DNA of 60,359 nt from a virus. The notes under the pieces are model-generated. The model ran no database searches. It was not told the DNA's origin and saw nothing but the letters and a program-made list of their open reading frames with translations. Location of the stretch: the IMG/VR virus record IMGVR_UViG_3300037509_000016, positions 1 through 60,359 of that record. One strand, written 5' to 3'. This document shows, one piece after another, positions 9,545 to 58,000 of this stretch. Numbering within the stretch: position 1 is the first letter of the stretch; each line of letters opens with the position of its first letter. Made by a program: the position numbers and the translations under genes.

Positions 9545-12500
9545 ATGTACGCACCGGGCGCGTATGACATTGAATTCCCCTCGCTGAATCTCGGCTTTAT
9601 GCTGTTCGACGAGGGCGACGATCCTGGCCTCGAGGGTGGCTGGAGCCCATCGGAGCTTGGTGAGGACGAGGCACCCATTCGCGACGTGCCGATGCAGATC
9701 GCCACCTACGACGGCGGGATGGGCGTGACGCAGCCAGCCGACGCGGTGCCCGGCGGCTACGCCTTCGGTCGAAGCGTCTGCACCCGATTCGGGGTGGCGA
9801 TGCCCGCCGGCGGTGTGACCGAAGTCCTGATGAACCTCGGGCTCGGAGTGACCGACCTCGACGTTGGCAATCCAGGATCGGGCTACCTCACCCCGCCGCT
9901 GGTAATCGTGAGCGGCGGCGGTGGGCAGGCCGCGCATATCACGGCTCAGACCCTTGGCGGCAAGGTGGTCTGGATCCAGCTGGCCTCGAACGGAAGCGGC
10001 TACACGACCGACCCGCTGGTTTGGATTGGCGCTCCTGATCAGCCTGGTGGCGTTCAGGCGACCGCCATCGCCGTCCGCTCGGCCAACACCGTGGTCGGCA
10101 TCACCGTGGTCAACCAGGGTTCTGGCTACTCGACCCCGCCGACCGTCGCGCTGGTTGGCGGACGACCGAGCGGCGCGGTGCTGAGTCCAATTGTCAACGT
10201 CCCTGCTGGCAACATCGTCTGGGTTGGTGTCGCGAACGGTGGTAGCGGCTACGTCTCGGGTCAGGTGACCGTCACCGCCTATGGCGCGGGAACCGGCTTT
10301 GTGCCTGGAGCCATCACCGTTGTCAACGGTGTGATCACGGCGGTAGCGATCACCGCCACCGGCGCGGGCTACTTCCAGGGCACCACCAGCCTGGTGGTCA
10401 CCTCGACCACGCCGCAGACGGTGGCCGCGATTGACTCGGTCTCCCTGGGCGGCTCACCGATTACCGGCTTCACCATTGTGCGCGGTGGCTACGGGTACTC
10501 CAGCGTCCCGACGGTGACCGTGTCTCCGCCGCCGTCGGGTGTGACTGCCACCGCCGTCAACGTCGAGATCGGGACGGTTGGACCCGCGCCCTGCTATGCC
10601 GCGGCGGAGTTCGAGGGTGACCTGTACTTTTTCTTCGGGCGGCACGCCTACGTTATCGAAGGCGGCGATGCGCCGGGTCCAATCACCACGCCCAATCACG
10701 ACTTCGGCCCAGGCGTCACCGTGCGCTCTGCCGTGACCCATATGGGGAACCTGTACGTCGGGACCGAAGGTGGTGCAGGGGTGCCTGGGGCTACCCTCTG
10801 GTGTCGGAAGAGCATCGCCAACGGGGGCAACTGGACCCAGATTGACCCCTCGACCGGCAAGCCGACCTGGGCGCGGGTGAGCCACCTCAAGAGCGTCTAT
10901 CTGGTGGATGGCAACAACGTCGGATCACAGCGCCTGGTGGGCGTGCGCTCGAGCGGGGCGAGGGCGGGGCGAGCCATCATCTTTACGTCGGGTGGTGGGG
11001 CCGATCCGCTGGTGGGCGGGGACGATGACGACTTCACGCTCGGCCAGGGGGTCTGGTCGGCGGAGTACCCGATTGGCGACTCGACGACGCCCGTCAACTC
11101 GCTGGCTGCGACCGGCCAGCACGTCTACCCGATCAAGACCGACGGGATCCACGACCTGGACGGAAGGGGCCGAGCCCCGAATTTCACGGAGTACTGGAAA
11201 GAGCAACTGAACGAGGCCAACGGGCAAGCCTCATTGGTGCATAACGGGTTCCTCTACGCCAGCCACGCCCAGGGGCTCGACCGATACCCGATCCAGCAGA
11301 CTGGTCGGGCGCAGCAACGGGTTGGCTTTTGTGGCCCAGGCACCGGCCTCAGCAATGAGACCCCGATTCGCGGGCCGGCCACGGCCCTGACCACTGAGTC
11401 GGGCTGGCTGGTCGGGGCGTTCTACGCTGGCCCGCGCGAGGGATCGTACGTGATGTACGGGCGCGACCGTGGCGAGCTCGGACGCGAAGAGGGGCGCGGC
11501 CCGATGGTGTGGCACGGATCAGAGATGGAGACGCCAGGGGAGAGAATCACCCTGATGCGCCCCGCCCAACTCGAGGCGCTCACGCCACGTCTCTGGGTGG
11601 CCTCCGTGGTGACGGACCCCGCATCCGACCGATTCGGCCAGGCGCGGCTGCGCTGGATGCACGTAGCTCAGGCAAGCTCCCCGATTCAGGAGTTGCTCCA
11701 GCACCTCCATCCGACGACAGGTGCCTACATCGGGGCGATGCGTTGGGCCTCAACCTGGGAGATCACCCATACCTCGTTCGACTGGGGATCCCAGGTGCCG
11801 AAGAAGGTGATCCTGCGGACCGATATCCGTGCGGACCGTTTGAACTCGGACCCGCAGAACATCGTGGCCCTGCGCGTCTTCGGGCGCGGCGAGGATGGTG
11901 CCTGGATCCAGCAGGGATCGGGACCGGACCTGCAGGCCCAGATTCAGGATCCCAAGGCCGTCACCAGTCCGCGCTCGAGCCTGCTGCCAACCTCGCCGCT
12001 GGTGGCGGGGCACTCGGTCCAGATGAAGGTGGTTGGAAGCTCACCCGACTCGATCATCGGAATGGGCGCGGGAGCGACGGCTGTTGCCACACTCGACGGC
12101 TCGGGCGGGGTGGGGGCCATTGAGGTGGTGCAGGGCGGCGGCAACTACGACACCCTGCCGACAGTTGTCCTGACCGGTGGTAACGGAACGGGTGCCGCGG
12201 CCCACGCCGTGGTCAGTAACGGCGTAGTCGTCGGGGTGGTGGTGGATCAGCCAGGGATCGAGTACGACACCCCGCCGACGGTGTCGTTTCGGGGCTCGGG
12301 TGTGACCAACGAGCCCGCCATCCTGCGCGAGTTCAGGACAAGGGCCGAGATCATTCAGGAGGCCCGAGACAATCGGACCTACCGCATCAGGATCGGGCCG
12401 CGCGTCTTCCTCAAGAACGGCTCGCCGGACCCGCGCGAGCCACAGCAGATCCTGGACGAGTTGTTCGCCCTGCAGTCTGCCGAGCCGCAGTGGATGATCG

Positions 12501-12760
12501 ACAACCAGCTGGCCTACCGCCAGTCGTCTCGGAAATGGGTCAGGGTCAACCCCGGCATCACGTACAAGCCGGTCAAGTGGAAGAGAGAGGGGGAAAACCG
12601 CCATGAGATCACGCTGGTGGCGACCATCAGTATCTCGGTGATCCCCTCGACGGCTGAGGAGATCTCGCTCGGCTACGCCGCCAGCGAACGCTCGAGGGCG
12701 CGGCTCGGGTTCCGTTGGAACAGCGGGGTCAAGTGGAATTCAGGAAGGCAGTGGGGGTAG
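9545..12760 (+). CDS. Large tail structural protein (nozzle/baseplate-like) with GxGY...P.V...GGxG repeats
   Basis: 1071 aa. At least six GSGY(x)3P(x)V repeat units at aa 105-335 and two more near aa 845-900. The central region could be a beta-propeller. Confidence 0.6.
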   Translation: MYAPGAYDIEFPSLNLGFMLFDEGDDPGLEGGWSPSELGEDEAPIRDVPMQIATYDGGMGVTQPADAVPGGYAFGRSVCTRFGVAMPAGGVTEVLMNLGLGVTDLDVGNPGSGYLTPPLVIVSGGGGQAAHITAQTLGGKVVWIQLASNGSGYTTDPLVWIGAPDQPGGVQATAIAVRSANTVVGITVVNQGSGYSTPPTVALVGGRPSGAVLSPIVNVPAGNIVWVGVANGGSGYVSGQVTVTAYGAGTGFVPGAITVVNGVITAVAITATGAGYFQGTTSLVVTSTTPQTVAAIDSVSLGGSPITGFTIVRGGYGYSSVPTVTVSPPPSGVTATAVNVEIGTVGPAPCYAAAEFEGDLYFFFGRHAYVIEGGDAPGPITTPNHDFGPGVTVRSAVTHMGNLYVGTEGGAGVPGATLWCRKSIANGGNWTQIDPSTGKPTWARVSHLKSVYLVDGNNVGSQRLVGVRSSGARAGRAIIFTSGGGADPLVGGDDDDFTLGQGVWSAEYPIGDSTTPVNSLAATGQHVYPIKTDGIHDLDGRGRAPNFTEYWKEQLNEANGQASLVHNGFLYASHAQGLDRYPIQQTGRAQQRVGFCGPGTGLSNETPIRGPATALTTESGWLVGAFYAGPREGSYVMYGRDRGELGREEGRGPMVWHGSEMETPGERITLMRPAQLEALTPRLWVASVVTDPASDRFGQARLRWMHVAQASSPIQELLQHLHPTTGAYIGAMRWASTWEITHTSFDWGSQVPKKVILRTDIRADRLNSDPQNIVALRVFGRGEDGAWIQQGSGPDLQAQIQDPKAVTSPRSSLLPTSPLVAGHSVQMKVVGSSPDSIIGMGAGATAVATLDGSGGVGAIEVVQGGGNYDTLPTVVLTGGNGTGAAAHAVVSNGVVVGVVVDQPGIEYDTPPTVSFRGSGVTNEPAILREFRTRAEIIQEARDNRTYRIRIGPRVFLKNGSPDPREPQQILDELFALQSAEPQWMIDNQLAYRQSSRKWVRVNPGITYKPVKWKREGENRHEITLVATISISVIPSTAEEISLGYAASERSRARLGFRWNSGVKWNSGRQWG

Positions 12761-27097: not shown

Positions 27098-27393
27098 GCC
27101 ACACCTACGACATTGTTTCTCGTCTCGAGGGAACGGCTGTCTACCGCAATGGTTTGTACATCACCACCCGTCAGACGCTGCAGGAGGGTCTCGGCCACCT
27201 CCGCTTCCTGCGCCAGCGCGACCTCGCTGCCGACCTCGCGAAGGACGCCCAGTGCTGGTACTGCGCTGGCCCCGCCGTGGCGGATGCCTGCTGTGTCCCC
27301 TGCCAGGCGTCCCTCTGCTCGCGCACCGACTGTGTCGAGAATCACCGATACTTCGACCACGATCATCGTTCGGAAGGAGCGCCCGATGCCTGA
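27094..27393 (+). CDS. Hypothetical Cys-rich protein
   Basis: ATGA overlap start. Sequence CWYC...CCVPC...C...C. Confidence 0.5.
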   Translation: MSHTYDIVSRLEGTAVYRNGLYITTRQTLQEGLGHLRFLRQRDLAADLAKDAQCWYCAGPAVADACCVPCQASLCSRTDCVENHRYFDHDHRSEGAPDA

Positions 27394-27859
27394 CGAGATG
27401 TTCATCGTCGCGTGTGACACGGAGACGACGGTCCACGCCTTCATCACCGAGCACGCCGTCTACCTGCACCCACACGACGCCGTCGGGCTCGACGCGCTCC
27501 AATACCTGCTGGATCAGTCCAAGCGTGGCAACCCCTTTGCGTCCCTGATGCCGACCTTGCGCCAGGAGCCTGTCGCTAGCGACTTCACCGTCTCTTGCCC
27601 CAACCTCGGCGGCAAGCCGATGGCGCAACTGTTCGCCACCCTGCTGGCGATGGGCCAGTCCTGTCAGGCCAGCCTCGACGACGACCTCGATCCACCAGAG
27701 TGGCTGGCCGACGCCAAGCGCCTCGGCCATATGGCGCTCGGGCTGGTGCAGGAGATGAATCAGGAGATGGCCTCGACCGACCGCCGCTCGGAGGTGCTCA
27801 ACACCCGCCCGATGGGCCTGCGCTATAGCTCCGACTGGCCCAGGAATCGGAGCAACTGA
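27386..27859 (+). CDS. Hypothetical protein
   Basis: ATG after GGAAGGAG. 157 aa. Confidence 0.55.
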   Translation: MPDEMFIVACDTETTVHAFITEHAVYLHPHDAVGLDALQYLLDQSKRGNPFASLMPTLRQEPVASDFTVSCPNLGGKPMAQLFATLLAMGQSCQASLDDDLDPPEWLADAKRLGHMALGLVQEMNQEMASTDRRSEVLNTRPMGLRYSSDWPRNRSN

Positions 27860-29197
27860 ATGGAGCAACCTGATGGGCTGGCTGTACATCCCACCCGAGA
27901 GCTTCTCGGGGCTGCCCTCTTCGCCGGCGGCGGAGGACTCGAGCTTGGAGTCTCCGCCGCCCTTGGCGTCCTTGGACACACCTATCGGACTGCCGTTGCT
28001 GTGGAAGGCGAAGCCTACGCGGCGGCAGTCATGGCTGCGCGTATGGAAGAAGGATCCCTGGACAAGGCTCCTATCTGGGACGACGTGCGAACCTTCGACG
28101 GCAGACCGTGGCGTGGCATCGTGGATCTCGTCTCTGGCGGGTTTCCGTGCCAGGATATCTCCACGGCTGGCGCTCGCGCCGGTATTGGCGGGGAACGATC
28201 CGGACTCTGGTTCGACATGGCTCGGATCATTCGCGACGTGGCACCCCGATACATTTTCGTGGAGAACGTCGGCGCTCTCATTGTTCGAGGACTCGACGCC
28301 GTTCTCGGATCGCTGGCCGACCTCGGGTACGATGCGGAGTGGGACGTGTTTTCTGCGTCGGAAGTCAGTGCGCCGCACCGCCGCCAGCGCGTTTTCATCC
28401 TGGCCGAATGCGCCTGTCACCGACGCGCTGACCCCCATCCCCACCATGTCGCCGTGGCCGACGCCGGACGCATCGGTGGCGCAGGACGGCGAGGGAGTCG
28501 AGACCTGGTCTGCGCGGCGCGAAATTCTGAAGGCCAAGAAGATCAACGGCAACGGGGCGGGGACGCCGCTCTCGATCGCAGCACAGCAGTGGCCGACGCC
28601 GACGGTACCAGCGCCGCACGACTCGGAGGCAAGCGCGGGGCGGCTGCGACCGCAGCGCGAGGGGTACGGGGTGGATCTCGCCAACGCGGCGGGGACGTGG
28701 CGGACCCCTCGAGCGGAGGATGCCGAAGCATCGGGAGCCCACCGCAACGGGACGGGGAGCCTGTACTCCCAGGCGCTCTGGACAACCCCAACCCTGGCCG
28801 ACTCGAAGAACACCCAGGCACCGAGTGCCGAGCAGCGGAAGGGCACCTATCTGTTCCGGCAGGCCCGTCTCTGGCCGACACCGTCCGGAATGGCGGGGAC
28901 GACCGAGTCGCGCGAGTCGAACGGGGGCGGGGAGTTCGCCCAGATGGTGACCCGCTCAGAGGCGAGCCAATCTTCCCGCCAGGCCCGACCGACGTGCAGT
29001 CATGGCGGACCGTGCAAGCTGGTCTTGAACCCGCGTTTTGTCGAATGGCTGATGGGCTGGCCGGACCAGTGGTCCCAGGCAGCCCCCTCTACGGGCGGCT
29101 CCTACGGCTCCGCCTCCTTGGCAATGGCGTGGTACCTCTCCAGGCTTCGGTCGCTTTCCTTGCGCTACTTCGGAATCTCAGACAGCGAGGTAACTGA
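27860..29197 (+). CDS. DNA (cytosine-5)-methyltransferase, catalytic-motif frame. Motifs I-VIII lie at the 5' end and motif X at the 3' end; the middle ~230 codons look non-coding in this frame.
   Basis: FAGGGG (27920), GGFPCQDIS (Cys codon 28148-28150), FVENV (28262), APHRRQRVFILA (to 28405), LLGNGVVPLQA (29120-29137). Confidence 0.75.
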   Translation: MEQPDGLAVHPTRELLGAALFAGGGGLELGVSAALGVLGHTYRTAVAVEGEAYAAAVMAARMEEGSLDKAPIWDDVRTFDGRPWRGIVDLVSGGFPCQDISTAGARAGIGGERSGLWFDMARIIRDVAPRYIFVENVGALIVRGLDAVLGSLADLGYDAEWDVFSASEVSAPHRRQRVFILAECACHRRADPHPHHVAVADAGRIGGAGRRGSRDLVCAARNSEGQEDQRQRGGDAALDRSTAVADADGTSAARLGGKRGAAATAARGVRGGSRQRGGDVADPSSGGCRSIGSPPQRDGEPVLPGALDNPNPGRLEEHPGTECRAAEGHLSVPAGPSLADTVRNGGDDRVARVERGRGVRPDGDPLRGEPIFPPGPTDVQSWRTVQAGLEPAFCRMADGLAGPVVPGSPLYGRLLRLRLLGNGVVPLQASVAFLALLRNLRQRGN

Positions 29198-29201
29198 ATG
29201 A
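27873..29201 (+). CDS. Overlapping +1-frame ORF. It carries the target-recognition-type region of the same methyltransferase (WxTP repeats, EWLMGWP). The coding status of its N-terminal 175 aa is uncertain.
   Basis: Five W-x-T-P repeats (28455, 28590, 28698, 28779, 28872) and NPRFVEWLMGWPDQW. Third-position GC is about 86% in this segment by hand tally. Has its own GGAGCAAC-N4-ATG start module. Confidence 0.6.
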   Translation: MGWLYIPPESFSGLPSSPAAEDSSLESPPPLASLDTPIGLPLLWKAKPTRRQSWLRVWKKDPWTRLLSGTTCEPSTADRGVASWISSLAGFRARISPRLALAPVLAGNDPDSGSTWLGSFATWHPDTFSWRTSALSLFEDSTPFSDRWPTSGTMRSGTCFLRRKSVRRTAASAFSSWPNAPVTDALTPIPTMSPWPTPDASVAQDGEGVETWSARREILKAKKINGNGAGTPLSIAAQQWPTPTVPAPHDSEASAGRLRPQREGYGVDLANAAGTWRTPRAEDAEASGAHRNGTGSLYSQALWTTPTLADSKNTQAPSAEQRKGTYLFRQARLWPTPSGMAGTTESRESNGGGEFAQMVTRSEASQSSRQARPTCSHGGPCKLVLNPRFVEWLMGWPDQWSQAAPSTGGSYGSASLAMAWYLSRLRSLSLRYFGISDSEVTE

Positions 29202-36967: not shown

Positions 36968-37770
36968 TCCGCATCGAGATCACACCCGAGCAGCGCGAGT
37001 GGGCGATCCAGGTCGCCAAGAACCGAGACGCTCGAGCCATCGCGCGGGGCGCTGGCCCAGGTCATGGCGACGAGCACCGACCAGAAGAGATCAAGGGCCG
37101 TGACGCCGAGCACGGCGCATTCGGGGAGCACGCCCTCTGTAACCTCTGGGGCGTCCCGTTCCTCGACACCGTCTATGAGTTCGGCAAGCCCGACGTACTC
37201 GGCTTCGAGGTCAAGACGCGCAGCGCCTGGGACTACCAGATTTACATCCCCAAGTCGGACCCGCCTGGCAAGAAGTACGTCCTGCTGACCGGCGGCTGGT
37301 CTTCGCTCTCGTTCATCGTCCGTGGCTGGTGCCGCGGCGACCAGTTCCGCCAGGATCGCTATCTCGCCGCCTACGGCAACAAGAAGCACGAACACTACTA
37401 CATCCCCAACGAGGAGCTTCACCCCATCGACGATCCCGAGCATTGCGCCGACTGCCTCGAGACCCTGCCGCCCATCGTCGGGCCGTACAAGAAGATCGAG
37501 CCGCCGAAGGGCAGCGCCGGGCTTGTCGTCCGACGCCTGCCTCCGTCGCAGGCGGTGGTGGTCAACTACGAGAGCCTGCCCTGCCTCTGCTGGATCGAGC
37601 ACCAGCACGGACGGTTTGGCTGGAAGTGCCAGCAGGCCATCGACCTGTACAAGCGAGTCGAGGAGTACCAGAAAGCCGCGAAGCCGGTCCCCTATGAGGT
37701 CGGGCTCGAGATCCTGAACCACTTCGGCCCCTCGAGCCTGCCCTACCTGCAGGGAGAGCTACGCGCGTGA
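36964..37770 (+). CDS. PD-(D/E)xK nuclease-like protein, directly upstream of terL
   Basis: GKPDVLGFEVKTR is a D...E.K motif. 268 aa. GTGA coupling to terL. Confidence 0.4.
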   Translation: MIRIEITPEQREWAIQVAKNRDARAIARGAGPGHGDEHRPEEIKGRDAEHGAFGEHALCNLWGVPFLDTVYEFGKPDVLGFEVKTRSAWDYQIYIPKSDPPGKKYVLLTGGWSSLSFIVRGWCRGDQFRQDRYLAAYGNKKHEHYYIPNEELHPIDDPEHCADCLETLPPIVGPYKKIEPPKGSAGLVVRRLPPSQAVVVNYESLPCLCWIEHQHGRFGWKCQQAIDLYKRVEEYQKAAKPVPYEVGLEILNHFGPSSLPYLQGELRA

Positions 37771-39359
37771 TCGACACCCACACCCCAGTCGAGCACACTC
37801 TCCACTCCAGCCTGATCAACGGGCTGAGTCCTGCGCCCGCCGTGGATCTGGCCTGGTCCGCCCAGATCGCGGCGCAGCGCCAGGCGCTCGAGTCCCCCGC
37901 CGACGAGATCCTCTTCGGCGGGCAGGCCGGTGGCGGCAAGACCGACCTCCTGCTCGGTGCCGCGGTCACCCGCCACCGCCGCAGCGTCATCTTCCGACGC
38001 AAGTACGTCCAGCTACGGGCCATCATCAGCCGCTCGAAGGAGATCATCGGCAGACTCGGCCACTACAACCACACCGAGCGACGGTGGGAGTTGGAGGGCG
38101 GCAGGGAATTGGAGTTCGGCGGGCTCGAGAACGAGGACGACAAGCTGAACTGGCAGGGCAGGCCGCACGACTTCTACGGCTTCGACGAGTTGACCCAACT
38201 CAGCCTCACGCAGTACCTGTTCGTGATTGCCTGGCTGCGGACCACCACCCCAGGCCAGCGCACCCGCATCATCGGCGCGAGTAACCCGCCGCTGACCTCT
38301 GAGGGACTCTGGGTGCTCGAGCGTTGGGCTGCCTGGCTCGACCGCACCCACCCGGATCCCGCGGCACCTGGCGAGCTTCGCTGGTACGTGCGGATCCGTG
38401 ACACCGAGCACACGGTCAAGGACGGCACCCCGATCCGGCACGAAGGGGAGATCTACTACCCGAAGTCTCGGACGTTCATCCCCGCTCGGCTCCAGGACAA
38501 TGCCTTCCTGATGCACGACCCCCAGTACCTCGCCACCTTGCAGGCGCTGCCCGCTGAGGTGCGCGTCCCGCTGTTGACCGGCGACTTCATGGCCTCGCGG
38601 GCGGACGACCCATTCCAGGTGATTCCGACCGAGTGGATCGAGGCGGCGCAGGCCCGCTGGCAACTGCGCACCCAGATCCGTGGGGTGGTGGCGGGTCCGA
38701 AGGGCGAGCCCGTTCCGCTCACCCGTCTCGGGGTGGACGTGGCCGAAGGAGGCGGGGACCGTACCGTCATCGGGCGACTGTACGGAGACTGGCTGGCCCC
38801 GCTCGAGGTCTACCCTGGCTCGAAGACGCCGACACCGATTCACACCGCCGACCTGGTCATCGCGGCCATCGTCGGGACCGACGCGGTCGCAGCCATCGAC
38901 TACAACGGGGTGGGGCAGACGGCCTACAACCTGCTGGCGGGACGACAGGTCAGCGTGGTGCCCTACATCGGCTCGAGCAAGACCAAGCAGCGCGACCGCT
39001 CGGGACAGCTTGGCTTCTACAACGTCCGAGCCGCCGCCCACTGGCAACTGCGCGAGCGCCTCGACCCTGCCTTTGGCCCGACGCTCTGTGTCCCGCCCGG
39101 CCAGGAGATCCTGCGTGAGTTGTCCGCTGCCCGCTACATCCTCGAGGACAGCAACTCGATGATCAGGATCGAGAAGAAGGACGCCATTGCCGAGCGGCTT
39201 GGTCGGAGCCCTGACCTCTCGGACGGTATCGTGATGACCACCTACGTGGACGCGGGCGAGCTTGCCGCGGCCCGCGTCGGCCACCAGTCTCGGCTGGCAA
39301 CCGGCATCGCCCCGAAGCCCAAGCGCCAGCCGAAGCCCGAATGGGTAGGAGCTCGTTAA
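37767..39359 (+). CDS. terL: Terminase large subunit
   Basis: Walker A GGQAGGGKTD, Walker B-like FYGFDELTQ, and a C-terminal nuclease-like region. 530 aa. Confidence 0.9.
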   Translation: MIDTHTPVEHTLHSSLINGLSPAPAVDLAWSAQIAAQRQALESPADEILFGGQAGGGKTDLLLGAAVTRHRRSVIFRRKYVQLRAIISRSKEIIGRLGHYNHTERRWELEGGRELEFGGLENEDDKLNWQGRPHDFYGFDELTQLSLTQYLFVIAWLRTTTPGQRTRIIGASNPPLTSEGLWVLERWAAWLDRTHPDPAAPGELRWYVRIRDTEHTVKDGTPIRHEGEIYYPKSRTFIPARLQDNAFLMHDPQYLATLQALPAEVRVPLLTGDFMASRADDPFQVIPTEWIEAAQARWQLRTQIRGVVAGPKGEPVPLTRLGVDVAEGGGDRTVIGRLYGDWLAPLEVYPGSKTPTPIHTADLVIAAIVGTDAVAAIDYNGVGQTAYNLLAGRQVSVVPYIGSSKTKQRDRSGQLGFYNVRAAAHWQLRERLDPAFGPTLCVPPGQEILRELSAARYILEDSNSMIRIEKKDAIAERLGRSPDLSDGIVMTTYVDAGELAAARVGHQSRLATGIAPKPKRQPKPEWVGAR

Positions 39360-46000: not shown

Positions 46001-49000
46001 ATGGGTGTCACGATTCCGCGGTTCCTGCTCGAGGCGGGTGACTCGCTCGACCTGGGTCTCGATATTCGAGGTGCGGTCGAGTCGCTGAACTTTGGGGAGA
46101 CGCGCGACCGCATCGTGCAGGACTTCCAGCGGACCGTGGTGCCCAACATCACCAGCCCGTTCAGTGGGCTGTCCCCTGGCGCGGAGTTGCAGCAGTCCAG
46201 CGGCCCCACTCCGCTGTCCCCTGCTGCCTCGCCTACCCCGATGCGTGACGACTGGTCACAGCCGAGCTCGACGCCGTCGGGCGGGACTGCCGCCCCGATC
46301 CTGCCGAGCTTCGCGCAGCGCCAGGAAGGGTTTGGCGGCTCGCCCAACAGTGGATTCGGCCCGTCCGACTTCGACGGCGGCAACTTTGAGCTGTCCGACA
46401 CCCGCCAGATCGCGCCGCAGTTCTACGACGAGCCCGAGCCCGCGCCTACCCAGACCTTCGGCCCGCCCGAGCGTGACGACTACCGCAAGACCGCGCCCGA
46501 TGCCCAGGGCGGAATGTCTACCGACATTGAGACCTACATCCGCCAGGCAGCCGAGCAGCGCGGGATTGACCCGAATATCGCGGTCAAGGTCGCCAACACC
46601 GAAGGCGGCGTGACCGAAGCCGCCCGCCGTGGCACGTTCTCGACGGGCTCAAGCTGGTGGCCGTTCCAGCTCCACTACGGCGGCAAGGGTTACGAGCATC
46701 TGGGCGATACCGCCGGGATGGGCAACACCTTCACCGAGCGGACCGGCTTCGCTCCCGGCGATCCCGCCGCGGTCTATGCCTCAATCGACTACGCCCTCGA
46801 CCACGCCAAGAACAACGGATGGGGTGCCTGGTACGGAGCCAAGGCCATCGGCATCACCGGTAAGCAGGGTATCAACGACGAGCCGCCCCAGACCTCGCCA
46901 GCCGCTGGCCGTCCTGCCCCGAAGCCGCCCGGCCAGCTTGGGCCTGCTGGTGACTACGACTCGAGCGATATCGAGCACATCAACCAGGTGGCCCTGGCGA
47001 GCCCAACCAAGTGGTCGGAGTGCGGACCCGTCGCTGCTGTGATGGCCGCGCTGCGCCGTGGGAAGGCGTGGACGGTCGAAGAGGCCAAGAACGCTGCCGC
47101 GGCCATGGATCTGTGGTCCGCCGATATGGGGATGCGCGGGCTCGGGGCTGAGGTCAAGCTGCTCAACTCCATGGGGATGACGGCTGCCACCGGTCCCGCC
47201 GAAGAGCGTGCCCTGATCGAGGACACCACCAACGGCAACACGCCGATTATCAGCACCAACAAGCACTACTACATTCTCGACGGCTACGACCCCGCGACTG
47301 GCAAGTTTGACACCGTGACCACCGGCCCGACGATGAAGGGCGGCAAGCGGTGGATGAGCCTCGACGAGATCGCCGCCCAGGGTGGCGGGATTCAGGGCGC
47401 GGCGTTCATCGACAACCCGCGCACCGACAAGCCCTCGATCGTCTCGGACGCCTACTGGGAGCAGGGCGGGCCTGCCACCCGCGCCACGGCTGCCGAAGCG
47501 GTCGAGCCCGACCCGCTGACCGGCGAGCCGCCGAAGCACGGTCTGACGGTCAGCCCCGATGAGCGCAACGAGTGGCAAGACCTGTTCAACAGCTTCTCGA
47601 GCGGGATCGAGGCCATCGACGAGCAGCTGGCTCATGGACGCGACAACGTCCAGAAGTTTGTCAGCGAGGTCGGCGGCGGGGTGGGCGATCTGCTCGGTGG
47701 CGCAGGCGCTGCTGTCGGCGGGGCTGCTGACCGTCTCGGGACCGAATTCCGTGACCGTCTCGACCAGGGGGCGGCTGACGTAGGTGGGGCTGCGGCCAAT
47801 GTCGGCAGCACCTTCGACCAGCTTGGCTCAGGGCTGCGCGGCGGGCTCGACCAGGCAGGCGAGGCTATCGGTGGTCGATTCGACGAGCTTGGTACCGCAG
47901 CTCGAGGGCGGCTCGATCAGGACGCTGCTGACCTTGGGCAGGCCACGACGAGTATCGGGGACACCTTCAGCCAGGCGGGGACGACCGTCCGCAATCGTCT
48001 CGATCAGGACGTTGCCGACCTGGACCGTCTCGGTGGGGATATCCAGAACCTGCAGACGTTCGCAGCCCAGAAGTCCAACGAGCTTGCCGGTGCGCTGAAC
48101 GCCTCGAGTGACACCCTGGCGACGTGGGTCAACGACCAGGCAGCCGCTCCGCTCTCGATCCCCGACCGTGCCGTTGCCGCAGCCCAGGAGACGATCCGCC
48201 AGCTTGACACGCTGGTGACCCAGGAAGCCGAGAAGGCCCGCACTGGCACGAACCCGAACGAGCGGATCGCTGTCGAGATGTTCGACACCATCGGCACCCA
48301 CATCCGCCGCGCTCGAGAAGCCCAGGCGAAGGGTGACACCCAGGGGATGGTGGCCGAGACGCTCAAGGCGACCGTGGCTGCCTCCCCGCGTGGAATGTCG
48401 GCCCAGATTGTGACCGGCGTGGCGGGCGATGCCGCGGCCCAGTTCGGCGGTGACACCACCAACCAGCGAGCCGCTCGAGGTGGGATGGTCAACGTCGAGC
48501 CCGGCGAGGTGGACAAGACCCTCGACGACGCGACGGCCCGAAGCAACGCCCTGCAGCGCGGGCTCCAGAACGCCAAGAGCGGCATTCTCGAGGGTCTCGC
48601 CATCGGTGGCCGTGCCCTCGACCCTGACGGGGACTCGCAGTTCGCCCGCTTTGTCGAGAATGAGGCCGACAAGACGCGCACCTACCTGAACGAGCACCCT
48701 GAGATTCTGCGCCGCCGTGGTGTCGGGGCGACCGGCGAGGAAGGCAACTTTGGGGATGCCATGATCGAGGCGCTGCCTGCCATGGCTGGCACCGTGATCG
48801 GTGGCGGGCTCGGTGTCGCGGCCACCGTCCTTGGTACTCGCCGTGGTGGGGCTGCTGTCGGTGCGCTCGGGACCGTGGTCGGCAAGGCGCAGCTACCGAT
48901 CCTCGGGGTGATGGCGGCGGGCTCGGCTCGCGAGAGTATGGAAGACCTCGTCCAGGACGGGAAGCTCTCGCCGGAGATGGCTGACACCCTGTCCGGTCTT

Positions 49001-52000
49001 GCCGGCGTGGTCGAGGTGGCGACCGAGCGGCTCGGTGTCGAGCAACTGGTGGGGGCGGGTGCTACCCGCATCGCTGCCCGCCAGGCAGCCGAGATCGCCG
49101 CACAGGGCGTGATCAAGCGCGGCTTTGGCACCGTCACCCGCGACACCGCCCAGGCAGCCGTGGCCGAAGGGCTCGAGGAGGTCATCGCCCAGGAGTACGG
49201 CAACGCCGTCCGCATCATCGCCGGCGACGAGCGCACCGACTGGGGCACCGGTGTGGTGGACGCCTTCCTGCTCGGTGGCACGATGGGCGGCGTCATGAGC
49301 GGGGCGATGGGTGCAGCCGAGCTCGGAGCGGACCGCGCCGGCCCTGCCGCTCGAGCCGCCGTCGGAGCGGTGGACCGTGGGCTGACTGCTGCGACCGAGT
49401 CCCCCGCGATGCAGCGCATCGTCCGCCCCGAAGGTGGCACCTCGCTCGGGATGGGCGCGGGTGCCCTCGCGGGCTACACCGCAGGCCCGCGCACCAGCCC
49501 CGAAGGCGAGACTATCGACTACCAGCGTTCGCCGGACGAGACGCCCGCCGGTCCTGCCGAGTCTGCCGAGATGGGCCGTGGCCCAGGTGGTATCCCGCGC
49601 GAGGCAATGCGCGAGGGGCCGAAGGGCGAAGCGGCCAAACGCGCCTGGCAGTCGGTCAAGGGACCGGTGACCCGCGTTCTGAACCAGAAGGCCGCGCAGA
49701 TGCGCCCGCAGGCCGACCCGCCCATCGTCAAGGTCGGCAATGAGCCGCCGCGGCGCTCGACACGGCTGGAGCCGCCAGAGGGGTTCGCTCGCCCTGGCGA
49801 GTTGACCCGCTCGAGTGAGGCGGATCTGCCCAACCGTGAGGTCTTCGAGCGGGTGGCGAAGAAGTTCCCAGAGGTGCGGATGGTGGACGGTGGCTACTTG
49901 CTGCCGAACGACAAGGCCGCGCGGTGGGAGTTGATCGACAAGCTGATCCGCCCGAATGATCGAATGCCGCCCGGTCTCGAGAACCCCGAGATGGAGGCGT
50001 TCCTCGGGAACCTGAACCGTGTTCGCGAGGGCATCGGGACCGGTGAGACGCAGCCCGAGACGATGATCCTGGCGGCGCTGCTCTCAATGGGCTCGATCAA
50101 GCGGGCGGGCTCGAGCGCGACCGGCGCGATTCAGCGAATCTCGAATATCCGCGGCGAGCCACTGGCGGGTGAGGAGCTTGCCGCTCGAGTGCAGCCCAAC
50201 ATCTACCCTCAGGCGAAGGGTGGCGGTCAGGAGCGCGGCATCCTGATGCGCCCCGAAATTCTCTGGTCGATGGTGGCGGGCGACACCACCCGCCCCGAGA
50301 TGATGAAGATGCTGGCGGGGATGACTCGGGCGGGTCAGTTCTCCAGCGAAGAGGCCCGCGAGGCTGCCGTCGAGCAGGGCGTGCGCCAACTGTACAGCGA
50401 GGTCAGTGGTCCAGGATCCGGGTTCGGCGGAGCCAACAACGACGTACAGAACATTCTCGGGCTCAATTACATGGTCAAGGGCGAAGAGATTCAGTCGCAG
50501 ACCCCTGGCTGGACCCAGACCGAAGGCAAGCGGTGGACCGACCTGGTTGACGCGGTGCTCAAGCGCGGTCCCTACACCGGCACGACCGGCGAGGACGCGC
50601 GGAAGAAGCAGGTGACCCGCCAGCTTCGCTTGAGCCCGCGCGGGATCGGACAGGTCAAGACCCGTTTCAATCAGGCGATGGGCGGCTTCCCCGAGTACGC
50701 CACGCTCGACACTCGGATGCTGCGCGACGTGTTCGGAATCAGCCCCAAGGTCGGCAGTCTCTCGACCGACGAGTACGAGCGCCTGTCCGAGCGCCTCTGG
50801 GAGTTGGAGCCCAACAGCAAGTATCTCTACGGTGCGCAGTGGCTGCCGTGGGAGTTCCTGACCGGCGAGCGGGTCAACTACGACTCACTGATCGGCACCT
50901 ACGACCGTGTCAACTCCTTTATGCGCCGAGCCAATGACATGGCCTCGCGCCAGAAGATCCCGCTGGATCAGGCCATCGACCAGCTTGCCGCCACCGAGCA
51001 GCGCGTCAACCTGACCCTCGCAGACCCCGCTCAGGTCGAGGGACGGATCGGTCTGAGCGGTGACGCGCTCCGCGCCCTGCCCCCAGGCGCGGGCATCGGC
51101 CAGGTCCAGAAGGCTGTCCCAGAGCTCTTCCGCCTGATCCGTGACGCCGGCCTCGAGGTGGTCAACCGACCCTCGACCGCGACCGGCGGCTGGATGGGCG
51201 AAGCGACGACGGAGGTACCCGACGGGCGCTACGTCGAGGGCTCGCTCGACCTCGTCCTGCGCGGCCCGAAGCCGGCCCTGCGCTGGTTTGCCGCGGCCAG
51301 TCTCTTCGTCTCCCCTGGCGAGCAGGCTGTCTACGTCGGCTACACCGGCGCGGGCTCGACGAACCAGCACGCCGTGGGCACCTTCACCATCAAGGGCGTG
51401 GACCGAGCCGAGCAGCCCGACTTCGTGCAGCGCCTGCTCGATGTGGTCCCCGACGGTGTGACCGTCCGGACTGGCACCGTTCGGACCGCGAAGGGTGATC
51501 TGATCGTCGAGATCGGCTCGCAGGAATCTGCCGAAGTGGTGCAGGCCACACTCGAGAAGGCTTTGGTCACACTTGCGACAGCAGGGTATACTGTTAGTGA
51601 CCTGGCGGTAACGCCCGCTGAGGTCGAATTCATCGCGCGGGCGGACGCGGAAGCGATCGTGCGCGGCGGTCCGAAGGGGGTATCCGTCAATGGCCCAGGA
51701 ACAGATGTGGGAGGAACTGCGCCGAATCTTCTCGACGCCACCAACGGAGGAGGAGATCGCGCCCCACCGGGAGCGGTTCGCGAAGATGCGGGAGGATCTG
51801 GAGCGCCAGCCGCTGCAGGCACGGATCTCGACCGCGCGGGCGGCACAGCCGCAGGAGGAGCCGCCCCAGGCGTAACGACAGCACCCACCGACACGCCCGC
51901 CCCGCCCGCCGGTCCTCCTGCCGGTGGCGCGGGGCGTTCGCTTGTGGACGAGCTTCGCGACACCCTCCGCAACGAGATGGGCACCATCGCGGGGGAGATC

Positions 52001-55000
52001 CGTACGCAGCTTCGCCAGGAGTTGCTCGGAGGCTCGGCTGCCGCCCCTGCCGCCGCAGGCCGACCGAACAACGACCTCCGCGCCCTGCCCGACGAGACCA
52101 TCCAGCAGTTCCGCACCCGCTTGCACCAGAAGTACGGTGTCGCCAACACCGCAGAGGACTACCCCCGCCTGCTCGAGGAGATTACGGAGGGCGAGCGCCA
52201 GGAGCTGATGCGGATGCGCCGCGAGATCGACGATGTACTCGACGCACCGCCGTCCGGCCAACCCCTGCCGCCAACCCCTGCCGCCCCGACCGGTCCACAG
52301 CCCCGCGCCGCTCGAGGCGCTTCTGGCAGCGGCACCGCGACCATCGGATTCTCGCCGGACTTCTTCCTGAAGGAGATCAACAGCCGCTACCCCGACGATA
52401 AGGGGGCCATCTCGGTCAAGGAGATGGTTCAGAACGCGGTGGACGCTACCAGCGCCCAGATCGCGACCGGCAAGACTACGGACACGCCGCTCACACGGAT
52501 CCTGATCGACCAGCGGACGCGCGAATTCGGGGTCTGGGACCAGGGGACCGGTATGGTCTCGGAGGTGCTCGAGAACGAGTTCGTGAAGTTCGGCGGCTCG
52601 CTCAAGGGCGACAACGCTCGAGGCGGGTTCGGCACCGCCAAGATCGCCATCCTGGGCAACGCCGAGAAGATCGCGCTGGTCTCGGTAGCCGAACGGTGGA
52701 CGGTGACCACGCCCGCTGGCGAGTACTATGCCGCGGCCACCGAGCAGCTGGCCCAGGCGTGGCTGGACAAGCCCGAGAACGCCAGCGTCCGACGGCTGAA
52801 TCCGACCGTCCAGAACGAAGGCGTCTTCGTCAGTGTCGCGCACGGCAACGCTGAGGACTACGTCAACCCTGAGAAGGGGCTGACCACCCGCTTTGCTCGG
52901 TGGGAGGTTCGCCAGGAGCTCCTCGACGACATGTCCATCCCGCTCGAGGTGCGTGACGCCATCGGCGGCTGGCGCGTCCAGGGTGAGACGGTTCCGCCGG
53001 TCGCGTCGGCGGCAGAGGCGGAGGCACCCGAGAGCCGCAACCTGCCAACGGGCTGGAAGATCGACCGCCTGCTCGAGGCCAACGAGAACGACTACGGCGA
53101 CTGGATGAACAACGTCGCCGGTGCGCAGGATACCGACTGGGCGCTCTTCGACCAGAACGGCCAGGTCGTCACGACCGACCGCGCCGTCGGGGGCCGTGGA
53201 CGGACTCGAGCCCAGGCCGAGAGCATCTTCACCGACTACTTCAAGGGGTTCGGATCCGCCACGCGACAGGGACAGCAGTTTGCCCGCGCGATGGCCGAGA
53301 AGCAGAAGGCCCAGAGCCGCGGCCCGCAGCCACAGCCGATTCGACAGGCCAACGGGCTCCCGCGCGGCTGGACCGTCCGCCAGATGCGCGATCTGTCACC
53401 CGCCGATCAGGCCGATATGCGGAGCGAAGGCTTTGTCCCTGACGCCTGGATCCTGCGGACCGGCGATGGAGACGCTATCTCGAGCCTGCCAGGGGAAGCG
53501 GCGCGGAACGCTGGCGAAGCTGCCGAGCAGATCCGCCGTCGGCCCGGCATCGCCACGGCGATCGAGAACGAGCTTCAGGTGCTGGCCCAGGAATACAAGA
53601 TGCCGAAGGGCTGGCGGCTCGCACAACTCGACAACATGGCAGCAGAGGACCGTGGGGCCGTCTTCGACTACGCCAACAACCTGCTGGCGATGCAGCCCGA
53701 AGACCTGGACGGGCGCGATTGGTTCCTGCTGGACGAAAACAATACCGTCATCTTCCACGGCAGCTTTATGCCGAGCGAGGCCACCGCTGGTGCTCGGCAC
53801 CGTGAGGCTGCCTGGGCCAACGTCATCGACTCCCTTGACGAGATTGACGACTACCACACCGAAGCTGCCGACACCCTCCGAGACAACTACGAGGGCACCC
53901 GAGCCGAGCCCGAGTCTACCGAGCCCGTCTACACCGTCCCTGAGGATTGGACATTCGCCCGACTGTCCGACCTTGACGAGAACGCGCGGCGCGAGGTGCA
54001 GGCCCAGGTCGAAGACCCGTCCTTTATCGACGAGCGCGACTGGTACCTGCTCGATCACCGCAACCAGTTGCTCTGGCAGGTTCCCTGGACCGCCGGGATG
54101 GTCTCCAACCCTGCCGCCACGCGCGAGTCTGCCTGGGGCTACGTGCTCGAGAACCTCGACGCGCTTGACGCAGACGGACGGTCCGGTGACGAGATCCGCG
54201 CCACCGCTCAGACCGCAGCCGCGCCGCAGCAAACACCTGGCCCGCGCCAGCCCGCCGACCCAAACGCTCCGCCGCAGGTGGGCACCTATCTCGGGATCCA
54301 GCTACGGAAGGACGCCCGATTCAGCGCCCACCCCACCTCCTGGGACGCCGCGCCCTACCGCAAGTGGATTGATGGCTTCCTGGCCTCGTCGAAGCTGAAC
54401 GACCAGCGCGTCGAGTTCTACGACAACGGTGGGCGGATCGCTGCCCCAACCAACCCTGAGGACACCGCCGACCAGAAGCTGACCACGCTCACGGTGCCAG
54501 GCGCTCAGGTCGATATCTGGATCAGCAAGGCGTACCACTCCGCCCCGCGCCTGCGCGTCAACTACCTGAACAACGGGCTGCCGCAGACGACCGGCACCGT
54601 CGAGTTGAACGAATCGACCAACGTCCCCAAGACCATCGTGGTGGACGTGCGCTCGACCGTCCCTGCTGGCTCGCCCAACTACCCATGGTCTGCCGACCGC
54701 CAGCGGCTCGTCCAGGACGCGGCTACGTCGGTTGATGTGTACCTGACCCGCGAGATTGCCGAAGCAGCCAAGCGAGCCGAGTCCAAGGCGCTGCACAAGG
54801 CGCTCGACTCGGGCTACACCGTCCCGCGAGCCCAGGGCAAGCTGCTGGACACCACCGCGGCAATCCCCGTTGACGTGATGAACCGCTGGCGGCAGCAGCC
54901 CTGGATGCGCCTGATGATGAACGGGGCGGCTCGCGGACACGACGCCCTGACGAAGATGACCGAAGGCAAGCCGAACGAGTTCGACGACTCGTCCTTCCGC

Positions 55001-58000
55001 GGCTCGGAGTGGCTCGGGTTCGGCACCTCGCGCGGGTGGGTTGGGCTGAACATTGACACCATCTCGATTGGCAAGAGCCAGAAGTACAGCATCCTGCTCA
55101 ACCCCTGGCTGTTGCTGCAGGAGTCGGTCAACAAGGTCCGACGCGAGCACGGCTCGCTGTACGCCGCTCCGAAGGGTGAACTCGAGGGCGTGATCTCGCG
55201 GCGGATGGCTGCGGTCCTGACCCACGAAGTCATCCACAACTCGCCTGGCGGGCGGAACACCGACCATGGTGCCGCCTTCGCTGGTATCCAGACCCGAATG
55301 GGCGTGGAGCTCGCCACCCACCCCGACGTGATTGGCCCGATCCGCAAGGCTGTTCGTCAGATGCTGGCCGATCCCGTCAACCTCGACCAGGCGCTGGATT
55401 CGCGCAACGAGTGGGAGGGCTACGCCACGTCGCAGAACGCCCTTGGCAAGATCGGACTCGAGGAGAGGAGCAACGATGCCGAACCAGAAGGAGATCGAGG
55501 AGACGTTGGAGGGGTTCCTGCAGGCGTCGATGGACCCGCTGCAGCGCGGGGCGGCGGTGGCGTACCTCGAGGAGGCGTCGAACCGGGGGCTGGACCCGCA
55601 GGAGATGTGGGAGACGGTGCGACAGGGACGGACCGAGATTCCGCCGTACCTGGAGCTGGTACGGAACGCCCCGAGAGGGACGACCCTTTCCATTCCCGAC
55701 TCCGACGAGCGATCAGCGGAGTCAGAGAGTCGTCCTTCCCCGCAAATATCCTCCTCCGACGACTCGAGAGTGGCTCCCTCCCAAGCCCCTTCAGTCGAGC
55801 CGAAGTCGTCTGGACCGGGCTCGACGACTACCTCCGAAGCAGAGGGACCGACACTCTCCGAAAGGATGACCTCCTTGCCTGGCTCGACGACCACGCCATC
55901 CGAGTCGAGGAGACCGTCCTCGAAGACCGCGACGAGCAGGACGAAGACCCCGACACCGGCCCGACCGAGCTAACGGAAGCTGCCGACCGTCTGCGGACCT
56001 ACCTCGAAGAGAACATGGAGAGCATTCTCGCTGACACCTGGCTCGCGCCCGATGCCCGCTCGCGGCTTGAGCGGATCATCGACGATGCCATGTACGCCGA
56101 CAACGTCGATCTGCCCACCGTACTTCGCAATGGGTCCGCAACCCTGCGCCTGGTCGAGAACAACGAGCTTCATGACTGGCTGGACGCCTTCGAATTGGTC
56201 GATACGCCCGAGAATCGTCCGCAGTACGGCGCGGGCAGGGCGATCTACGGCCCCGAAGGGCAGCACGGCCCGGAGCTGGTCGAGCCCGGCGGGCGCAACT
56301 ACCGCGAGTTACTCCTGCGCCTGCCCCCGCTCTCGACACCTGAGGTCACCGAGCGGTACGACGCGATGCCGGGCGAGCCGTCCCAGATGAGCGAGTTCGG
56401 TCCCGACGATTACCAGTCAACCCACTGGCCCAACGACGCGAACGTCCTGGCTCACGTTCGATTCGACGAGCGGACCCGCGAGACACCGAACGGCGAGGAG
56501 CGGGTGCTGTTCATTCAGGAATTCCAGTCCGACTGGGCGCTCGACGTGCTCAAGAGCGGCGTGCGTGGCACCACCGACCCGATCACCCGCTTGCGTGCGA
56601 TGGGCTACACCGTCGAGTTTGACGGCGGTGGCGTCACCGTCACCGATCCCGCGACCAACCAGCGCCTGATCACCCCCGACGATATGGCGATGTTCGGGCA
56701 GGCCCGCTCGACCGAGATCGAGGCTCCGCCAGAGGTCGCGGCGCTGATCGCGGAAGCCTACGACATGACCGAGACGCGGGGTGGCGGAATGCCCCCGCCT
56801 GCTGGCCCATTCGTGGTCAACCCGACCAAGACCGGCGCGAGCGGCGACTGGATCGACCTCGGGGTCAAGCGGATGGTTCGGTGGGCGGTGGAGCACGGCT
56901 TCGACCGTCTCGCCTGGACGAGCGGCGAGCAACAGATCAACCGCTACCACCTCGAGACGATGGCTGACCGCCTGGATCTGGTCACCCGCCCAGACGGGAC
57001 CGAGCGCCTCGAGGTGTACCGCAACCGCACGTTCCAGAAGGCTATCCCGCTGAACCAGCCCGATGCTGAGGGTGAAGGTGGCTCGCTCGAGTCGATGGTT
57101 GGTCCCGAGATCGCAGCCCGTCTTCGGGCGCAGCCGCCGTCCGGTACCACTGGCACGACGCAGCCGCTTGAGTCGCAGACCCGCGTCCTGAACCTGACCG
57201 AACAGGTTGGCGTCGGTGGCCGCGGCAAGCGGAAGCTGTACGACGAGATGGTCCCGAGCGCGGTCAAGCGGGTGATGAAGAAGTTTGGCATCCGCGACCA
57301 GCCCATTGAGATGCCCTTCCCCGAGAGCGCGGGCGCGGGCATCAGCGGTGACGCCGACCTGAACCATGTCGTTATGGACCCGAACAACACCATCTACGAC
57401 GCCTTCTCGACGCTCGGAGAAGCTGAGCGAGTTGCCGCCGACGCCGGACCTGGCTACTACGTGGCCTCGACCGACCGAGTCAAGCAGGAGCAAGTTCACT
57501 CGGTTCCGATCACCGATGAGGTGCGCGAGTCCGTGCTCGGCAAGGGCTGGCCGCTGATGGGCATCGTCGGCGGGATTGGGATTGAGAACCAGCAGTTCCT
57601 ACGCGACACCATCGGGGCTGGTGGCGACGACGAAGAAGACCCCGAGACCTTCAGCGGGATGGGCGCGGTCGCGGGGATGGCGCTCTTCAGCGGACGGAAG
57701 GGCGGCGGCAAGTTTATGCGGGCCGCGATGCGCTCGCAGAAGGCCGCTGCTGGCGCACAGCGTCCCGCGCCGCCAGTCTTCGGTCAGCCAGAGGTAGCCG
57801 AAGAAGATCGCCCGCGCGGCGTCACGCCGCTCGACTGGATCAAGCAGGTGGGCTACTCGGGGATGATCGGCCCAACCGCCTTCGTGACCAACACCGCCGG
57901 CAACGCTATCGAGACGTTCTACAACCTGCCGAAGCAGTCGCTGCTGCTGGCGACTCGGACTGGCGAGGCTTCGACCCTGATCGCCCCGACAGCGGCAATC

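Follow-up and report, generated by a model that had tools for sequence, protein, structure and literature searches.

Two reading frames at one locus

The window, by which we mean the whole 60,359-nucleotide stretch of IMG/VR virus record IMGVR_UViG_3300037509_000016, carries on its plus strand, between positions 27849 and 29201, a C5-cytosine methyltransferase locus in which two open reading frames (ORFs) are superimposed. Frame A (27860-29197) specifies 445 amino acids and frame B (27873-29201), which lies +1 of A, specifies 442; both are open from end to end. The C5-methyltransferase motifs are divided between them, with motifs I-VIII and X in frame A and five W-x-T-P repeats together with motif IX in frame B. 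An initial annotation of the window had described two fully overlapping open frames and a division of the motifs between them; the ORF list agrees with the first statement, and motif mapping and homologues agree with the second.

Frame A contains the S-adenosylmethionine-binding and catalytic domain, motifs I-VIII (27920-28405), in which we mapped FAGGGG (motif I, 27920-27937), GGFPCQDIS (motif IV, 28136-28162, with the Cys codon at 28148-28150), FVENV (motif VI, 28256-28270), and APHRRQRVFILA (motif VIII, 28370-28405). When both frames were scanned against Pfam, PF00145 matched frame A only (amino acids 20-182, E 1.7e-31), over the first half of the profile. The TIGR00675 score of frame A, 90.9 bits, lies under the cut-off of 100.65 because only half of that profile is matched. 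Frame A also matches phrog_363 over amino acids 18-436 and, in a phmmer comparison, M.HhaI (E 3e-11). The presence of motifs I (FxGxG), IV (PCQ, including the catalytic Cys), VI (ENV), and VIII (QxRxR) in a Rossmann-type large domain is what defines the C5-methyltransferase family (PF00145/TIGR00675), and frame A has all of them. Its motif X, LLGNGVVPLQA (29114-29146), has the expected GNxVxxP helix, in which G421 and N422 are invariant in 119 homologues.

What frame A does not contain is a recognition domain and a motif IX between motifs VIII and X in the same polypeptide. The corresponding stretch (28406-28972) is an Arg/Gly/Ala/Asp-rich linker that remains open, and its amino acid sequence is not conserved among homologues. 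In the AlphaFold2 model of frame A, built with 119 homologues (predicted template modelling score, pTM, 0.61), the predicted local distance difference test score (pLDDT) is 89-98 for amino acids 10-190, falls to 28-39 with no secondary structure for the approximately 175 residues of amino acids 195-369, which are also free of selection, and is again 87-97 for the C-terminal helices 409-419 and 425-444. Foldseek matched this model to M.HhaI and M.HaeIII (E 2e-14, approximately 180 columns). Based on the pattern of AlphaFold2 and Foldseek results, the frame A product is predicted to be a complete large domain in which a disordered tether replaces the small domain. The initial annotation had taken the middle of frame A for off-frame filler, which holds insofar as the stretch is unselected and predicted to be disordered, but conservation begins at FPPGP (28973), well before motif X. 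The conserved C-terminal segment, FPPGP...EPAFCRMADGL...LLGNGVVPLQA plus the terminal helix (28973-29197), corresponds to the family consensus WPPGP..EPAVRR.ADGL..DRLR.LGNGVVP. Since frame A is conserved from 28973 onward and this segment overlaps motif IX of frame B, approximately 225 nucleotides are truly dual-coding.

Frame B has three parts. The N-terminal extension (27873-28454; MGWLYIPP...AGFRARISP...WPTSGTMRSG) is the +1 reading of motifs I-VIII and, judging by substitutions and stop counts, is at most weakly selected. The variable region (28455-29027) holds the five W-x-T-P repeats (28455, 28590, 28698, 28779, and 28872) and is presumed to be the target-recognition region. It is followed by motif IX, NPRFVEWLMGWPDQW (29028-29072), the most conserved block of the B family. 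The motif positions given in the initial annotation were correct for the five W-x-T-P starts, the Cys codon, and the end of motif VIII, whereas those for NPRFVEWLMGWPDQW were off by 3 nucleotides. Its tallies of codon-position G+C were approximately right: the recomputed G+C content at third codon positions (GC3) is 0.84 for frame B in the repeats and 0.66 for frame A across motifs I-VIII, compared with 0.80-0.87 in ordinary genes of the contig.

Frame B matches phrog_1008 and has no match in Pfam or NCBIfam. A first search yielded 598 homologous predicted proteins, and none of the best 120 carries PF00145. A profile of the B family found 48,642 cluster representatives (50% identity clusters) at E<=1e-3 among 1.84 billion proteins. 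With hmmsearch, the B-family hidden Markov model (HMM) aligns its segment LNPrFvEwLMGwPigw to amino acids 493-523 (RLTAEFVEWMMGLPHGH) of Streptomyces phage Darolandstone gp38, where the RLTAEFVEWMMGLPHGH block shares its frame with motif X (LKALGNGVVPQQA) and precedes it by approximately 20 residues. By this alignment, the conserved block of frame B sits at the position of motif IX.

Recurrence of the frame split among homologues

We collected 170 loci, of which 90 are viral (9 loci from phage records, 80 IMG/VR viral contigs, and the window) and 80 are on contigs from bacterial genomes. Using phmmer for the N domain of A and for the B protein, we find a B-type ORF at +1 of an A-type methyltransferase ORF in all 170, over a G+C range of 48-73%. 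The bacterial loci come from Acidobacteriota, Chloroflexota, many Rhodobacterales, Planctomycetota, and Streptomyces, among others. Likewise, tblastn of frame B against phage genomes gives matches within annotated methyltransferase genes, always +1 of the motif-bearing frame. Whether the split recurs in homologous phage loci was a check that the initial annotation had proposed, and the answer is a clear yes.

The two frames have been annotated in different ways. In Burkholderia phage phi1026b the annotated coding sequence is the A-type frame, and it is the B-type frame that is labelled "cytosine-specific methyltransferase" in Acidovorax phage Alfacinha3; in Synechococcus phage Yong-M2-251 both frames are open over their full length. 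The same arrangement is seen in relatives of lower G+C content, which were picked by frame-A similarity. Salmonella phage S9-5 (gene G+C 55%) has a frame A of 244 and a frame B of 245 amino acids with 15 stops in the third frame, and Acinetobacter phage ABMM1 (gene G+C 50%) has frames of 304 and 298 amino acids with 28 third-frame stops. Vibrio phage 1.236.O and Pseudomonas phage phPA-G likewise keep the two frames open, with 18 and 17 third-frame stops, respectively, and in these phages it is the B frame that has been annotated as the coding sequence. Some A-type proteins are only 244-252 amino acids long. An explanation of the double frame as an artefact of high G+C content was considered and rejected, given that homologues of 49-55% G+C keep both frames open while their third frame has 15-28 stops.

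Selection in each frame

Several lines of evidence indicate which frame is under selection along the gene. The nearest relatives of the window are only approximately 37-46% identical to it in frame B, and for this reason the evidence on selection is drawn from other members of the family. Within a 16-locus cluster of 82-95% identity, we scored the fraction of variable columns by codon phase. Across motifs I-VIII this fraction is 0.40-0.85 at third positions of frame A (second positions of B), 0.15-0.33 at first positions of A (third of B), and 0.07-0.25 at second positions of A (first of B), the pattern of a frame-A gene. From motif VIII to motif IX the variation is instead what a frame-B gene would show, the same three phases giving 0.10-0.28, 0.68-0.85, and 0.15-0.33. 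Over the last approximately 200 nucleotides all three phases are low (0.05-0.33), and both frames are constrained. The initial annotation had suggested asking whether synonymous sites are suppressed in both frames; they are, but only over these last approximately 200 nucleotides, and elsewhere a single frame is selected in each segment.

Eighteen further pairs, when pooled, give for first, second, and third positions of frame A values of 0.158, 0.097, and 0.318 in the N part and 0.18, 0.115, and 0.195 in the last 150 nucleotides. In these comparisons the middle segment is dominated by changes at third positions of frame B in close pairs and is saturated in distant ones. Locus L048, for example, differs from L070 at 2-18% of sites, depending on codon phase, in the N part and at approximately 50% in the middle, which is unalignable. 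At the level of sequence, then, the middle of frame B behaves like an exchangeable recognition cassette.

Stop codons point in the same direction. Among 155 distinct loci with a recognizable motif IX, the interval from motif VIII to motif IX (mean 454 nucleotides) is free of stops in frame A in 148 and in frame B in 154, and in the third frame in none (mean 5.9 stops); synonymous shuffles of frame B predict 3.3 stops per locus for frame A over this interval. In the N domain, where A is the coding frame, frame B is stop-free in 145 of the 155 loci and the third frame in 23. Because stretches without detectable selection on their amino acids are nevertheless poor in stops, ribosomes appear to read frame A through the middle of the gene and frame B from its 5′ end. 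The amino acid sequence of these stop-free, unselected stretches, as far as comparison of sequences can tell, hardly matters.

Two further observations concern the N-terminal part of frame B. Its consensus SWRGWKxxPWxxLLSGT (amino acids 41-70 of B; window 27873-28100) has an AlphaFold2 pLDDT of approximately 80, and in the L016 cluster the third positions of frame A are less variable over nucleotides 121-300 (0.40) than nearby (0.65-0.85). There may be weak selection on this part of the protein, for example for association with the frame A product, as has been reported for the beta chain of M.EcoHK31I.

Twin translation starts

A twin translation-start module can be read from the sequence at 27849-27875. 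It comprises, in order, GGAGCAAC at 27849-27856, the TGA of the upstream ORF at 27857-27859, the ATG of frame A at 27860, a second GGAGCAAC at 27862-27869, and the ATG of frame B at 27873, with GGAG placed 7 nucleotides before each ATG. The module is a near-duplication of 13-14 nucleotides, GGAGCAAC-TGAATG followed by GGAGCAAC-CTGATG, such that there is one Shine-Dalgarno-like GGAG per start. The two starts are 13 nucleotides apart in the window and usually 4 in relatives, most of which have one Shine-Dalgarno sequence common to both. At least 53 loci of the family show the arrangement NTG-N-ATG, in which the start of A (ATG, GTG, or TTG) is followed 4 nucleotides on by an invariant ATG of B. 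In these loci B opens as M-x-W-L-Y/F, a Shine-Dalgarno-like purine run lies upstream, and the TGA of the upstream gene often overlaps the module. The second codon of A takes the form xAT (Asn, His, or Asp) in every case. G+C-rich genomes, where xAC is the preferred form, are no exception, and this constancy points to selection on the ATG of frame B.

Natural variants

Two IMG/VR contigs, L052 and L056, have an insertion downstream of motif IX that moves motif X to frame B. Frame A is cut short in both, ending at motif IX in L056 and within the VIII-IX region in L052. The insertion lies approximately 130-200 codons after motif IX, and in L056 the IX-X segment appears to be partially duplicated. 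In actinophages of the Che9d and Darolandstone types, stops interrupt frame B across the N domain, and its start must be internal; the N-terminal extension of B is thus dispensable. Darolandstone (L003) has motifs IX and X both in frame A, and only a region of LLPTPxAxD repeats is in +1. Its gp38 (L003 1465-2337) is annotated as a single 564-amino acid "DNA methyltransferase", with six LLPTPxAxD repeats in +1 and Arg/Gly/Ala-rich filler opposite them in frame 0. Approximately 500 Mycobacterium phage records matched frame A, and many actinophage methylase annotations may lack a second chain.

A different kind of variant is found in phi1026b (L001 1390-3510), in which the B frame runs without a stop into a ParB-like partition gene to give an ORF of 706 amino acids. 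Several related phage records annotate this region as "chromosome partitioning protein". This ORF may be a natural fusion of B with ParB.

A proposed two-chain enzyme and its alternatives

We consider it probable that the locus encodes a two-subunit C5-methyltransferase, the alpha and beta chains of which are read from two co-extensive overlapping frames of one mRNA. Of the four explanations offered in the initial annotation, a split enzyme and genuine dual coding together make up this best-supported model, which draws on the frame split and its recurrence, the segment-wise selection, the avoidance of stops, the twin starts, and the predicted fold of alpha. Ribosomes on a single mRNA would start either at the ATG at 27860 (frame A) or at that at 27873 (frame B). 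Alpha would consist of motifs I-VIII followed by a disordered linker of approximately 175 residues, of which nothing would be required except the absence of stops, and its motif-X helices would fold back to complete the large catalytic domain. Beta would begin with an N-terminal extension of approximately 190 residues, mostly a by-product of motifs I-VIII being read out of frame, and would supply, in its W-x-T-P variable region and motif IX, the parts that normally form the small, DNA-recognizing domain. Alpha and beta would then assemble into an active enzyme that methylates phage DNA. The production of both chains, their association, target recognition by beta, and activity are what we infer from the biochemistry of M.EcoHK31I, a methyltransferase of Escherichia coli.

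Several points weigh against this proposal. The translation of both frames in this phage is a prediction made from sequence. At 66% G+C, two open frames in the window taken by itself are statistically unremarkable: when its codons are shuffled synonymously, frame B is stop-free over the N part in 23% of shuffles and frame A over the middle in 6%, for which reason the significance of the open frames has to come from the homologues. The AlphaFold2 model of beta, for which 117 homologues were used, reaches only partial confidence (mean pLDDT 62.9, pTM 0.37), its better parts being amino acids 191-250 (pLDDT 73-93), motif IX (84-89), and one C-terminal helix, and Foldseek found no match to this model in the PDB. 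The assignment of the middle of beta as a target-recognition domain therefore rests on its position, selection, and variability. (A sequence search of the PDB with the B profile returned only MS2 coat-protein matches, which we judged to be spurious.) In the published account of M.EcoHK31I, the predicted recognition domain is on alpha and not on beta (PMC2836561; PMC3404938).

A further point against a two-chain enzyme comes from the comparison with profiles. The initial annotation had proposed running a C5-methyltransferase profile against each frame and against frame-corrected versions. PF00145 recognizes frame A and not frame B, and an in-silico splice in which the middle and motif IX of B are set between the two parts of A gains only approximately 4 bits and no new matched stretch; fragments consisting of motifs IX and X likewise showed no additional PF00145 stretch against Pfam. 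The splice is uninformative, however, because Pfam also misses the single-frame C-terminus of Darolandstone gp38.

Finally, 7 of the 155 loci have stops in the middle of frame A (14 in L089, 4 in L131, 3 in L123, and 1 in each of four others), so that the alpha linker is not always intact. In L089 (2501-4027), and also in L131 and L123, frame B is intact and the motif-X segment persists downstream in frame A. These loci are either decayed or three-part, or they use recoding or some other route to motif X.

Among the alternatives, the one that fares best is that frame B is a genuine second protein that has nothing to do with methylation, for example an overprinted anti-defence or regulatory protein, and that alpha works alone or with another partner. 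The lack of matches to B in Pfam, NCBIfam, and the PDB would fit such a protein, as would the run of the phi1026b B frame into a ParB-like gene and the short, locally confident elements that AlphaFold2 predicts at amino acids 41-70 and 141-160 of beta. We nevertheless think it unlikely, since the best-conserved block of B is at the motif IX position and aligns to a segment that elsewhere precedes motif X in frame, and since the selected region of B exactly fills the gap between motifs VIII and X of alpha. Furthermore, L052 and L056 carry motif X itself in frame B, and the beta chain of M.EcoHK31I is a methyltransferase subunit (PMC2836561).

It is also conceivable that a single polypeptide is made by a +1 shift directly behind motif VIII (at approximately 28405-28455) and a -1 shift that falls between motifs IX and X (at approximately 29073-29113), through ribosomal or transcriptional slippage, perhaps at runs of five C residues, to give the canonical order of motifs I-VIII, recognition region, IX, and X. 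The selected segments, when joined A-B-A, do have the canonical C5-methyltransferase order, and the C5 runs that the initial annotation located at 28432-28436 and 29083-29087 are indeed there, one in each junction window; in L089, L131, and L123, moreover, only some form of recoding or a third ORF could connect motif X with motifs I-VIII. However, no X_XXY_YYZ heptamer is present at either junction, and homopolymer runs accompany the two junctions in no more than 26 of 82 and 6 of 82 loci. C or G runs of at least 5 nucleotides occur in the window at 1.4 per kb. Programmed frameshifting or slippage would be recognized by a conserved slippery site and by an abandoned frame that is free to close; we find no such site, and the frames that would be abandoned stay open in 148 and 145 of the 155 loci. 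Nor would a double shift give any reason for the open middle of frame A, the open N domain of frame B, or the conserved ATG of B, and its product would lose the frame-A segment conserved from 28973, which begins upstream of the presumed -1 site. There would also be no precedent for two efficient shifts within a single gene over very diverse hosts. We thus regard a single shifted polypeptide as improbable, somewhat more so than an unrelated second protein, and the slippage-based recoding entertained in the initial annotation is not supported. Its suggestion of a poly-C phase switch is likewise at odds with the unconserved homopolymer runs at the junctions and with the fact that B has a conserved ATG of its own.

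The hypothesis that frame A is the sole gene, coding for a compact methyltransferase that has a low-complexity insert, and that frame B is a shadow ORF of conserved G+C-rich DNA finds some encouragement in current annotation, given that in an E. coli prophage copy frame A is all that the RefSeq Prokaryotic Genome Annotation Pipeline (PGAP) annotates and that Pfam and NCBIfam recognize frame A only. The N-terminal part of B does evolve as a shadow of frame A, and out-of-frame tblastn similarity is expected for conserved DNA. Between motifs VIII and IX, however, substitutions follow frame B, whose third positions are the most variable while first positions of A change freely, and the middle of frame A is predicted to be fully disordered. 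Frame B also stays open for 245-300 codons in genes of 49-55% G+C whose third frame contains 15-28 stops, and its ATG is conserved. Frame A alone would be without any region able to recognize a target, and some alphas have a length of only 244-252 amino acids. For these reasons we hold a shadow ORF to be very improbable. An assembly or sequencing error, or a decaying pseudogene with two compensating indels in a single-frame gene, which C5 runs near both frame changes of a metagenomic contig might bring to mind and which the initial annotation had already found unattractive, can be dismissed with near certainty because the same +1 layout recurs at every one of the 170 independent loci, including finished phage genomes and those of cultured strains that many groups have sequenced, and both frames are intact from start to stop.

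Genomic context

The window is phage-like, encoding a virion structural protein (9545-12760) and a terminase large subunit (37767-39359). On the minus strand an antisense ORF of 561 amino acids (27161-28846) is open across most of the methyltransferase locus, which is probably a consequence of the G+C content and of the double constraint on the plus strand. Elsewhere, positions 46001-59560 form a single ORF of 4519 amino acids (13.6 kb) with ordinary codon-position G+C (GC3 0.82). The named best matches to frame A (P0261, P0274, P0290, P0296, and P0350) are mostly from Myxococcus species, with 60-64% identity over the N domain, a hint that the host of the phage is a myxobacterium or a similar G+C-rich organism.

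Significance

Long same-strand overlaps in which each frame counts are uncommon, and annotation pipelines usually discard them; the 1.3-kb overlap described here gives a clear, segment-by-segment signature of the selected frame. Current annotation is inconsistent, with frame A chosen in phi1026b and E. coli PT62 and frame B in Alfacinha3 and Vibrio phage 1.236.O. At each locus only one of the two chains is recorded, which one it is varies, and beta has no Pfam or NCBIfam model. If the two-subunit model is true, the specificity of methylation is not predictable from the annotated alpha alone, and alpha alone should fail to give activity. The family is also a source of natural split methyltransferases for engineering, a use to which M.EcoHK31I has already been put, and a large data set on the evolution of overlapping genes under double constraint.

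We also advance, with slightly less than even confidence, a broader hypothesis, namely, that phages and prophages have, in their short "DNA cytosine methyltransferases", one very large, unrecognized class of obligate alpha/beta enzymes. In such a class the target-recognizing chain would be encoded in +1 across the gene of the catalytic chain, the twin starts would lie 4 nucleotides apart on one ribosome-binding site, and recognition cassettes could be swapped with the catalytic sequence left intact. Were this so, no other long same-strand gene overlap known from prokaryotic viruses would be nearly as widespread as this one.

Comparison with known systems

Beyond M.EcoHK31I and a case of an HNH endonuclease in the ShiLan element, we found no description in the literature of an overlap of this kind across a family. 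Ordinary C5-methyltransferases such as M.HhaI and M.HaeIII (PF00145) have the same catalytic motifs and large-domain fold as the window gene but, unlike it, have the recognition domain and motifs I-X together on a single chain read from a single frame. The ShiLan element is an HNH endonuclease that lies out of frame inside methylase genes of actinophages (Arsenault, Gosselin & Gogarten 2025, PMC11855218). There, as here, a phage methylase gene remains open through a segment that is truly coded in another frame, and the in-frame reading is predicted to be a tolerated loop. The hidden ORF of ShiLan, however, is an inserted mobile homing endonuclease, whereas the hidden frame of the window spans the gene and would be an integral part of the methyltransferase.

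The initial annotation had cited M.AquI of Agmenellum quadruplicatum (Karreman & de Waard 1990) as a precedent. It is indeed a naturally split C5-methyltransferase, in which one subunit has motifs I-VIII and the other the later motifs, and the subunits are encoded by consecutive genes and each carry part of the variable region (PMC3404938). The variants L052 and L056, with motifs I-VIII on alpha and the variable region, IX, and X on beta, resemble it. The window gene does not, given that its motif X is on alpha and its motif IX on B and that its ORFs overlap over their whole length.

A closer precedent is M.EcoHK31I of E. coli HK31 (recognition sequence YGGCCR; Lee, Kam & Shaw 1995), in which the alpha gene contains, in a different frame, the coding sequence of beta. 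As described in the literature (PMC2836561; PMC3404938), it consists of two associating polypeptides that are both needed for methylation, alpha having motifs I-VIII together with X, and beta, which lies wholly within the alpha gene, having motif IX. Silent removal of the beta start codons abolishes methylation in vivo, and the N-terminal part of beta is dispensable for catalysis and contributes to association. The window shares with this enzyme, so described, an alpha ORF with motifs I-VIII plus motif X and a motif IX in a second ORF of another frame; as in that type, both frames are under selection and beta has a start of its own. Unlike in M.EcoHK31I, the window beta is co-extensive with alpha (442 versus 445 codons) and starts 13 nucleotides after the alpha start rather than internally, and both selection and structure prediction put the variable region on beta, the counterpart on alpha being a predicted disordered linker. 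The window gene is furthermore a phage gene and apparently not part of a restriction-modification system, no restriction enzyme having been recognized beside it in a scan that took in few neighbouring ORFs. By its defining sequence features, as taken from the published description of that enzyme, the window gene is of the M.EcoHK31I kind. The locus may thus belong to a kind that is already known, though seldom recognized, and what may be new is the picture at the level of the family.

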